Assembly (NCBI RefSeq): GCF_003334335.1
Contig: NZ_QOWQ01000090.1
Reading direction: 5' to 3' (one strand)
Length of the DNA stretch: 2,270 bases
Origin: Escherichia coli
GTDB taxonomy: Bacteria; Pseudomonadota; Gammaproteobacteria; Enterobacterales; Enterobacteriaceae
Shown here: positions 1,278-2,270 of the stretch, in pieces
How positions within the stretch are numbered: position 1 is the stretch's first letter
How the letters are laid out: every line of letters begins with the position of its first letter
The notes under the pieces: model-generated
Seen by the model: only the letters and a program-made list of their open reading frames with translations
What the model was told of the DNA's origin: nothing
The model's database searches: none
Program-made: the position numbers and the translations under genes

Positions 1278-2270
1278 TTATGCTTTCCACTTCAGAACAC
1301 CCGAATTTCTCGCGTGCATTAAAAAACGAATCAGCAACAACAGCTGACTGCCGTGTTTCTCTTCAAAATCTTTTACTCCGGCGTGTAGTTCGTTATGGCA
1401 TTTACGGCACAACGGAATAACAAACAAATCGTCAGCCTTTGTTCCCATACCTCCCAGTCCATGACCAATGATGTGATGCGGATCATCTGCCTGATTGCCA
1501 CACGTCATGCATTTCTGCGTTTTTACCCAGCGCGTGTATACAGGCATCTCTTCCCGTTGTGGTTTCTGGCGCTGGAGGTACTGAGCCGGAGACTCCGGAT
1601 CAACGGTGATGCTTACTAACGTCTTTTCCTGGGGTGGGGGCTGTTGCTGGTGGACGTGAAGTGGCAGCGCAATATTTTTTGTGCGCTGCTTCAGTATGCT
1701 GATGGCTGTCTGTTCTCCCGGTACGATGTCACTCTCACGGTATACGGAGCGGATTTTTTCCACCGGTAATCCCAGCGAACGACGCAATACAGACTCCGGA
1801 AGCGCATCAGCCACCTGATGACAAACCGCCCACCAGCATAACTCTGCCAGCGACAGTTCCCGCTCCTGTGTGCCATTCATTGCGTGACGTATGACATCAA
1901 TCATCCTGGCTGCCAGATTCTGCTGAGCAAGTTGATCGAGTGATTCTGATGTCTGGTCGCGCAGCTGGTTGTCACAGTGCCAGCACAACACCATCGCGCC
2001 GGTACCGTAACGGTGAATGACGGTTTCGCTGTGATGATAATCACCGTGTGGCCACTGGCAGGATTTCACGTGACGTAATAACCAGTCAGACAGTGCACCA
2101 GCGCCACCCGCAGCACGAATCACCCGTTCGTTGCTGAAAAATGGCAGTAATGTTTTATCCTCTGCCAGCGGCTGTCGAACGGCAGGAACGACTCCGGACG
2201 GCAGATTACGCATGCTTTTCGGTTCCGGCTCCACCAGTACCCGGGTATTGTGGAATACCGGCATGGATTC
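1278..2270 (-). CDS. DUF968/NinG-like phage protein with C-terminal HNH-type (His-Me finger) nuclease motif; resembles YdfU-like proteins of lambdoid prophages
   Basis: A 328-codon open frame runs from ATG at 2264..2262 to TAA at 1280..1278, and the frame stays open to the window edge at 2270, so the true start may lie upstream. The C-terminus (residues 252-294, about nt 1383..1511) reads CxxC...DPHHIIGHGLGG...LCRKCHNELH, matching the HNH pattern of two CxxC pairs, an HH dyad, an Asn and a terminal His. The stop abuts the rusA start (TAAATG). The position immediately upstream of rusA and a Q-like gene is where NinG/Rap-type genes sit in the lambdoid nin region. Confidence 0.8.
   Translation of the reverse strand, partial: ESMPVFHNTRVLVEPEPKSMRNLPSGVVPAVRQPLAEDKTLLPFFSNERVIRAAGGAGALSDWLLRHVKSCQWPHGDYHHSETVIHRYGTGAMVLCWHCDNQLRDQTSESLDQLAQQNLAARMIDVIRHAMNGTQERELSLAELCWWAVCHQVADALPESVLRRSLGLPVEKIRSVYRESDIVPGEQTAISILKQRTKNIALPLHVHQQQPPPQEKTLVSITVDPESPAQYLQRQKPQREEMPVYTRWVKTQKCMTCGNQADDPHHIIGHGLGGMGTKADDLFVIPLCRKCHNELHAGVKDFEEKHGSQLLLLIRFLMHARNSGVLKWKA

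Follow-up and report, generated by a model that had tools for sequence, protein, structure and literature searches.

A probable flexible linker carrying a glutamine/proline tract in a lambdoid-prophage DUF968/YdfU protein of Escherichia coli

Results

The locus and the full-length DUF968 protein

We analyzed a 2,270-nucleotide stretch of Escherichia coli DNA (contig NZ_QOWQ01000090.1, hereafter the window) in which the gene for a DUF968 domain-containing protein encodes a short glutamine/proline (Q/P) tract, QQQPPPQ. The protein belongs to the DUF968/YdfU family and is encoded by a lambdoid prophage. We consider it likely that its Q/P tract forms the middle of a flexible linker (residues ∼220–249), a lineage-specific stretch free of sequence constraint, and that this linker connects a folded N-terminal region (residues 1 to ∼219) with an HNH (His-Me finger) module at the C terminus (residues ∼241–352). 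A lambdoid prophage of E. coli JE86-ST05 (NZ_AP022815.1) matches the window at 100% identity, and over 3,600 of 5,426 complete genomes of the species carry similar DNA. All of its genes lie on the minus strand:

1278 to beyond 2270, minus strand: DUF968 domain-containing protein gene (RefSeq WP_024192039.1, coding sequence L001:7278-8336)
912..1277, minus strand: rusA, RusA-family Holliday junction resolvase (PHROG 34, E = 5.1e-56; RefSeq annotation)
232..915, minus strand: antiterminator Q gene (PHROG 304, E = 2.5e-102; RefSeq annotation)

RefSeq annotates the first of these products as a DUF968 domain-containing protein, and NCBIfam holds no model for it. Its coding sequence begins at a GTG codon 72 nt beyond the window's end and yields 352 amino acids (aa), which places the start and residues 1–22 outside the window. 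The first Met within the window is residue 25. The 24 residues upstream of it, at window 2265–2270 and beyond (L001:8271-8336), are conserved across the family and modeled as strands with a predicted local distance difference test score (pLDDT) of ∼90; the upstream GTG is therefore the real start of the gene, and the in-window Met is not. Residue numbers 206–212, given to the tract in an earlier note on this DNA, had been counted from that Met and become 230–236 in the full protein (an offset of 24). Family conservation was read from an alignment, A1, of 32 full-length homologs (25–92% identity) gathered by searching 1.84 billion representatives exhaustively, and the AlphaFold2 model was built on the same 32 sequences.

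The Q/P tract is mild low complexity

1629..1649, minus strand: QQQPPPQ tract, residues 230–236 of 352 aa (from translation)

The tract is present where it had been reported, in the minus-strand translation. The plus strand of this interval reads CTGGGGTGGGGGCTGTTGCTG, and the minus-strand codons CAG CAA CAG CCC CCA CCC CAG specify QQQPPPQ; the G-rich string quoted in the earlier note, ggggtgggggctgttgctggtgg, is located at window positions 1631–1653. When the protein was shuffled 20,000 times, no shuffle contained a Q/P-only run of at least 7 residues, and 2.1% contained a run of at least that length built from any two residue types. The longest homopolymer runs at the tract are C5 and C4 on the coding strand, and Tandem Repeats Finder detected no DNA repeat in the window at a score of at least 30. 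The Q/P tract is mild low complexity and not a striking repeat. We also observed a second two-letter run, AAGGAGA (residues 75–81, window 2094–2114, minus strand), which, unlike the Q/P tract, is confidently modeled (pLDDT ∼94) and shows partial conservation, with AxGG as the family consensus. Other readings of the G-rich run were rejected: an Rfam scan for RNA families gave just subthreshold chance matches, and the plus-strand open reading frames at this position are short and without support. No promoter-like or terminator-like site falls on the Q/P tract.

The tract lies in a predicted unstructured segment of variable length

1617..1661, minus strand: low-confidence core of the inter-domain linker, residues 226–240 (LHVHQQQPPPQEKTL; pLDDT <50, DSSP coil, indels)
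1629..1682, minus strand: approximate lineage-specific insertion, residues ∼219–236 (TKNIALPLHVHQQQPPPQ; from alignment A1 and anchor spacing)
1680..2270, minus strand: folded N-terminal region, residues 23–219 within the window (coding sequence annotation; model pLDDT 91.8, predicted template modeling score [pTM] 0.76)
1281..1616, minus strand: C-terminal module, residues 241–352, with a conserved VDPE..PK..W lead-in followed by the HNH domain

The AlphaFold2 model of the full protein has a mean pLDDT of 86.9 and a pTM of 0.56. Residues 226–240, which contain the Q/P tract, are its sole segment with a pLDDT below 50, and DSSP assigned coil without secondary structure to residues 220–249. The 10-residue blocks flanking the low-confidence segment mostly score 83–97. 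When the N-terminal 222 residues were modeled alone, pLDDT was 91.8 and pTM 0.76, compared with a pTM of 0.56 for the full protein. The models fit two well-folded parts with a mutual orientation that is predicted to be undefined; the segment between them is unstructured in the prediction and its flanks are confidently folded.

Its length is also free to vary. In the 32 homologs, 20 to 58 residues (median 24; 41 in our query) separate the conserved anchors ESD (D203) and VDPE (V245), and both length and sequence are less conserved here than in the flanking domains. The Q/P run sits inside an insertion of ∼17 residues that is common to the closest E. coli lineages only, most homologs being gapped in the alignment. 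All 32 homologs have a variable linker at the tract position, whether a Q/P run is present or not. The earlier proposal of a flexible linker between the N-terminal region and the C-terminal HNH module is thus supported by both checks that had been suggested for it: the tract belongs to the only segment scoring below 50 and not to an ordered core element, and linker length is not invariant.

Both flanks are folded, and the N-terminal one is composite

1383..1511, minus strand: HNH core, residues 276–318 (C276-x2-C279, H287-H288, D303, C310-x2-C313-H314, H318)
1962..2060, minus strand: second His-Me-finger-like zinc beta-beta-alpha unit, probably noncatalytic, residues 93–125 (CQWPHGDYHH...LCWHCDNQL)

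Downstream of the linker, the query has every listed residue of the HNH core, each conserved in 26–32 of the 32 homologs. Among them, C276, C279, C310, and C313 (C or H) are conserved in 32, 26, 27, and 26 homologs, respectively, forming the structural zinc site CxxC...CxxC/H that characterizes the zinc-finger HNH subclass. AlphaFold2 modeled the core as a strand (285–288), a second strand (306–309), and a helix (311–319); this is the beta-beta-alpha core of a His-Me finger, with the general-base His ending strand 1 and the metal-binding His/Asn in the helix. Pfam HNHc_6 matches the C-terminal module (E = 2.6e-7), and PHROG 96, “HNH endonuclease,” matches the whole protein (E = 1.3e-153). The complete zinc-finger HNH motif and these matches bear out the earlier assignment of the module after the linker. 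A search of PDB sequences with the single protein returned only a weak match to YbcO (E = 0.41), and the same search with the family profile returned none.

The N-terminal region is less simple. Residues 1–159 match no Pfam family, and their putative four-ligand zinc site (C93, C/H101, C118, and H/C121) is fully conserved. This region contains a second, zinc-binding HNH-like fold that is probably noncatalytic. An internal duplication was not supported: a profile–profile comparison of the N- and C-terminal beta-beta-alpha regions aligned their Cys motifs at P = 0.057 and a probability of ∼1%, which is not significant. A resemblance in fold is claimed for the two regions, and an origin by duplication is not. 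Pfam DUF968 (PF06147; E = 4.1e-64) aligns its model positions 1–169 of 171 to residues 160–344 (136–320 in window numbering; window 1304–1784), positions 1–59 matching residues 160–219. Because the model spans the disordered linker, running from the final helices of the N-terminal region into the HNH module, the DUF968 “domain” is not one structural unit. The earlier picture of a DUF968 protein split by the linker into two domains therefore holds as far as folded parts lie on either side, but the N-terminal part is composite, and the Pfam domain straddles the split.

A mosaic joint lies just downstream of the linker

Comparison with the YdfU protein of the Qin prophage revealed an abrupt change along the protein. 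Relative to Qin-type YdfU, the query is 92% identical over residues 1–159, 87% over 160–219, 62% over 220–240, and 62% over 241–352. At the DNA level, the megablast match to genomes carrying K-12-type/Qin-type ydfU ends at about window position 1586, near residue 250; this places a mosaic breakpoint immediately past the conserved VDPESP motif, where protein identity falls from ∼90% to 62%. The drop in identity and the end of the DNA match point to different histories for the two halves of the DUF968 protein, with the switch just after the linker.

We considered whether the tract might be a recombination scar, the joint between N-terminal and HNH modules from different phages, with no role of its own. 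The nearby fall in identity and the end of the ydfU match would suit such a scar, as would the fused or chimeric proteins that break in or near the linker. However, the identity switch occurs ∼14 residues downstream of the tract, past the conserved VDPESP motif; a variable linker is found at the tract position in all of the diverse homologs whether or not they have a Q/P run; and the two readings, mosaic joint and linker, do not exclude each other. We regard a scar as improbable, although it is the best placed of the alternatives that we weighed.

Many representative matches cover residues 1 to ∼230 alone or ∼237–348 alone. In the chimeric proteins P0142, P0143, P0146, P0164, and P0192, the N-terminal part or the C-terminal module alone is joined to unrelated sequence (a Q-like zinc finger, tail-fibre-like sequence, or a methyltransferase-like fragment), with several joints in or near the linker. 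We did not accept matches breaking near residues 230–238 as natural domain shuffling and gave them less weight, several being fusions or internal deletions. The breaks in these five proteins probably reflect prophage decay or assembly artefacts.

The tract varies among close prophage copies

To describe variation at short range, we compared 117 cluster representatives from E. coli, all of near-normal length and sharing at least 91% identity with the query. The 9-residue windows with the most residue types per column are those covering residues 225–240, with the highest values at 225–233 and 226–234. Indels recur only at residues 228–233, in 12 of the 117 representatives; all other indels are singletons. 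Ten representatives have a form one residue shorter (HQQN-PPQ), and two have a form two residues longer (HVHQHQQQ). The commonest tract is QQQPPLQ (80 of 120 aligned rows plus the query), QQQPPPQ being less common. Even among these close copies, the tract is not conserved.

The DNA of the length variants suggests how they may have arisen. The 354-aa variant has an exact tandem duplication of CACCAG, and in the 351-aa variant one CAR codon of CAG-CAA-CAG is missing; both are compatible with replication slippage on short repeats. Every length variant at the tract is in frame, and no frameshift variant was seen among the representatives. The suggestion that the tract is slippage prone and differs in length between prophage copies is thus borne out in part: in-frame indels are found in 12 of 117 copies, but the effect is modest, with no repeat detected by Tandem Repeats Finder and no frameshifts.

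The same variability bears on three further alternatives. Proline-rich peptides often mediate protein contacts, and the tract, exposed and unstructured in the model, could in principle be a short linear motif that binds a host or phage partner. Such a role is very unlikely: PPP is replaced by PPL in most of the close copies and elsewhere by NPP, IPP, KPP, SLP, TLP, or indels, and the tract is absent from most family members. Equally unlikely is an ordered element that AlphaFold2 missed owing to a shallow, gapped alignment. Alignment A1 has only 32 sequences, mostly gapped here, which by itself lowers pLDDT; yet the flanks were modeled confidently from the same alignment, the composition (Q, P, H, E, and K) is typical of disorder, and a core would not tolerate a length range of 20–58 residues or indels among near-identical copies. 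The chance that the G/C runs or CAG repeats form a contingency (phase-variable) locus, switching or tuning the gene by slippage, is close to negligible. The coding strand does carry the C5 and C4 runs and CAGCAACAG, and in-frame −1 and +2 codon variants exist, but the runs, with no tandem repeat detected, are far shorter than known phase-variable tracts, and the variants among the 117 representatives are all in frame, only 12 representatives differing in length at this spot. All four alternatives are contradicted by the variability data or by the breakpoint position.

Neighboring genes and signals

The three genes follow one another closely. The rusA ATG comes directly after the DUF968 TAA stop (window 1275–1280), and the Q ATG overlaps the rusA TGA as ATGA (window 912–915), an arrangement of tight translational coupling across the operon. 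Downstream of Q, we noted a promoter-like site (TTGCAA-17-TATATT, window 242–214, minus strand) and, after it, a strong GC hairpin with a T-run (window 159–145, minus strand); together (window 145–242), they fit the layout of a lambdoid-phage late promoter PR′ and terminator tR′.

Discussion

Our analysis favors a linker that would act as a passive, extended spacer only. Its prolines and glutamines would keep it extended and soluble, and the Q/P insertion would merely lengthen it. The N-terminal region probably supplies recognition of DNA or a partner, and the linker would let the nuclease module move relative to that region and reach DNA held or recognized there. In-frame length changes would come from loss or duplication of CAR/CACCAG units, and such small changes would be tolerated because only the approximate length of the linker matters.

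Several points weigh against this picture. Low pLDDT is a proxy for disorder and not a measurement of it. The KPV..L.VDPEPP segment just after the tract is conserved and could dock on the N-terminal region, shortening the free part. Most homologs lack the extra ∼17 residues, and a benefit of the query’s length is unproven. The apparent domain breaks in chimeras are weak evidence for modularity. Finally, the literature that we searched contains no demonstrated nuclease activity or substrate for any YdfU-family protein, and searches on DUF968 and YdfU found no functional study.

Among the closest known systems is YdfU of the Qin prophage, a full-length homolog in the same nin-region context beside the Q antiterminator; our locus also adjoins rusA. 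Its linker likewise contains glutamine and proline (HQQQNPSQ) but differs in sequence from the query’s, and the query’s C-terminal module is a divergent (mosaic) allele. Jablonska et al. placed DUF968 and DUF1364 (YdfU and YbcO) in His-Me finger group 7 and proposed a role in recombination for this group, given neighbors such as RusA and Q (PMC5714182). YbcO of the DLP12 prophage (DUF1364; PDB 3g27) is a stand-alone 96-aa module that, unlike the query, has neither the N-terminal region nor the linker. PdcB of phage P1 (AF234173.1, 88636–89556) is a distant full-length homolog, tblastn aligning it to 97% of the query at 25% identity; phages of Vibrio and Cronobacter have similar genes, as do SJ46 and D6, which are P1-like.

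Two characterized nucleases offer functional parallels. Ref of phage P1 is, by experiment, a RecA-dependent HNH endonuclease (PDB 3plw; PMC3973344 and PMC4330346) that cleaves only RecA-bound DNA (D-loops) (PMC3973344). It has a disordered basic N terminus of 76 residues, whereas the query has a folded N-terminal region of ∼220 residues and an internal linker. The likeness is at the level of fold only: a Pfam scan of the query gave no match to RecA_dep_nuc (PF16786), and neither phmmer nor a profile search of PDB sequences found 3plw. RecA dependence of the query protein would be by analogy only. Gp16 of Staphylococcus aureus phage PhiNM1, a NinB-like domain with HNHc_6, is experimentally a RecA-dependent nickase (PMC12817073). 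It and the Orf-HNH proteins of Listeria and Staphylococcus combine an N-terminal recognition domain with a C-terminal CxxC...CxxH HNH (PMC12817073 and PMC4118853), the two-module design seen in the query, in which we found no NinB/Orf-like N-terminal domain.

Because its gene lies in the nin region in translational coupling with rusA, the DUF968 protein would most likely act on recombination or replication intermediates. Such a role agrees with the group 7 hypothesis (PMC5714182) and with P1 Ref and PhiNM1 Gp16 (PMC3973344 and PMC12817073). More tentatively, and with greater doubt than belief on our part, YdfU-family members could be tandem His-Me-finger proteins. The N-terminal zinc-site copy, which would have lost the general-base His, would serve as a sensor of DNA structure or of a partner, tethered by the length-tolerant linker to an active Ref-like HNH; the pair would act with RusA on lambdoid-phage recombination intermediates, and how far apart recognition and cleavage can lie would depend on the length of the linker with its Q/P insertion.

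The Q/P linker is real, but it is an ordinary disordered linker in a prophage protein family that is known and already annotated, and it carries little weight as a discovery. It does supply construct boundaries for work on YdfU/DUF968 proteins, namely residues 1 to ∼219 for the N-terminal region and ∼241–352 for the HNH module. Within the former, the second HNH-like zinc fold may explain how these proteins recognize their substrate.
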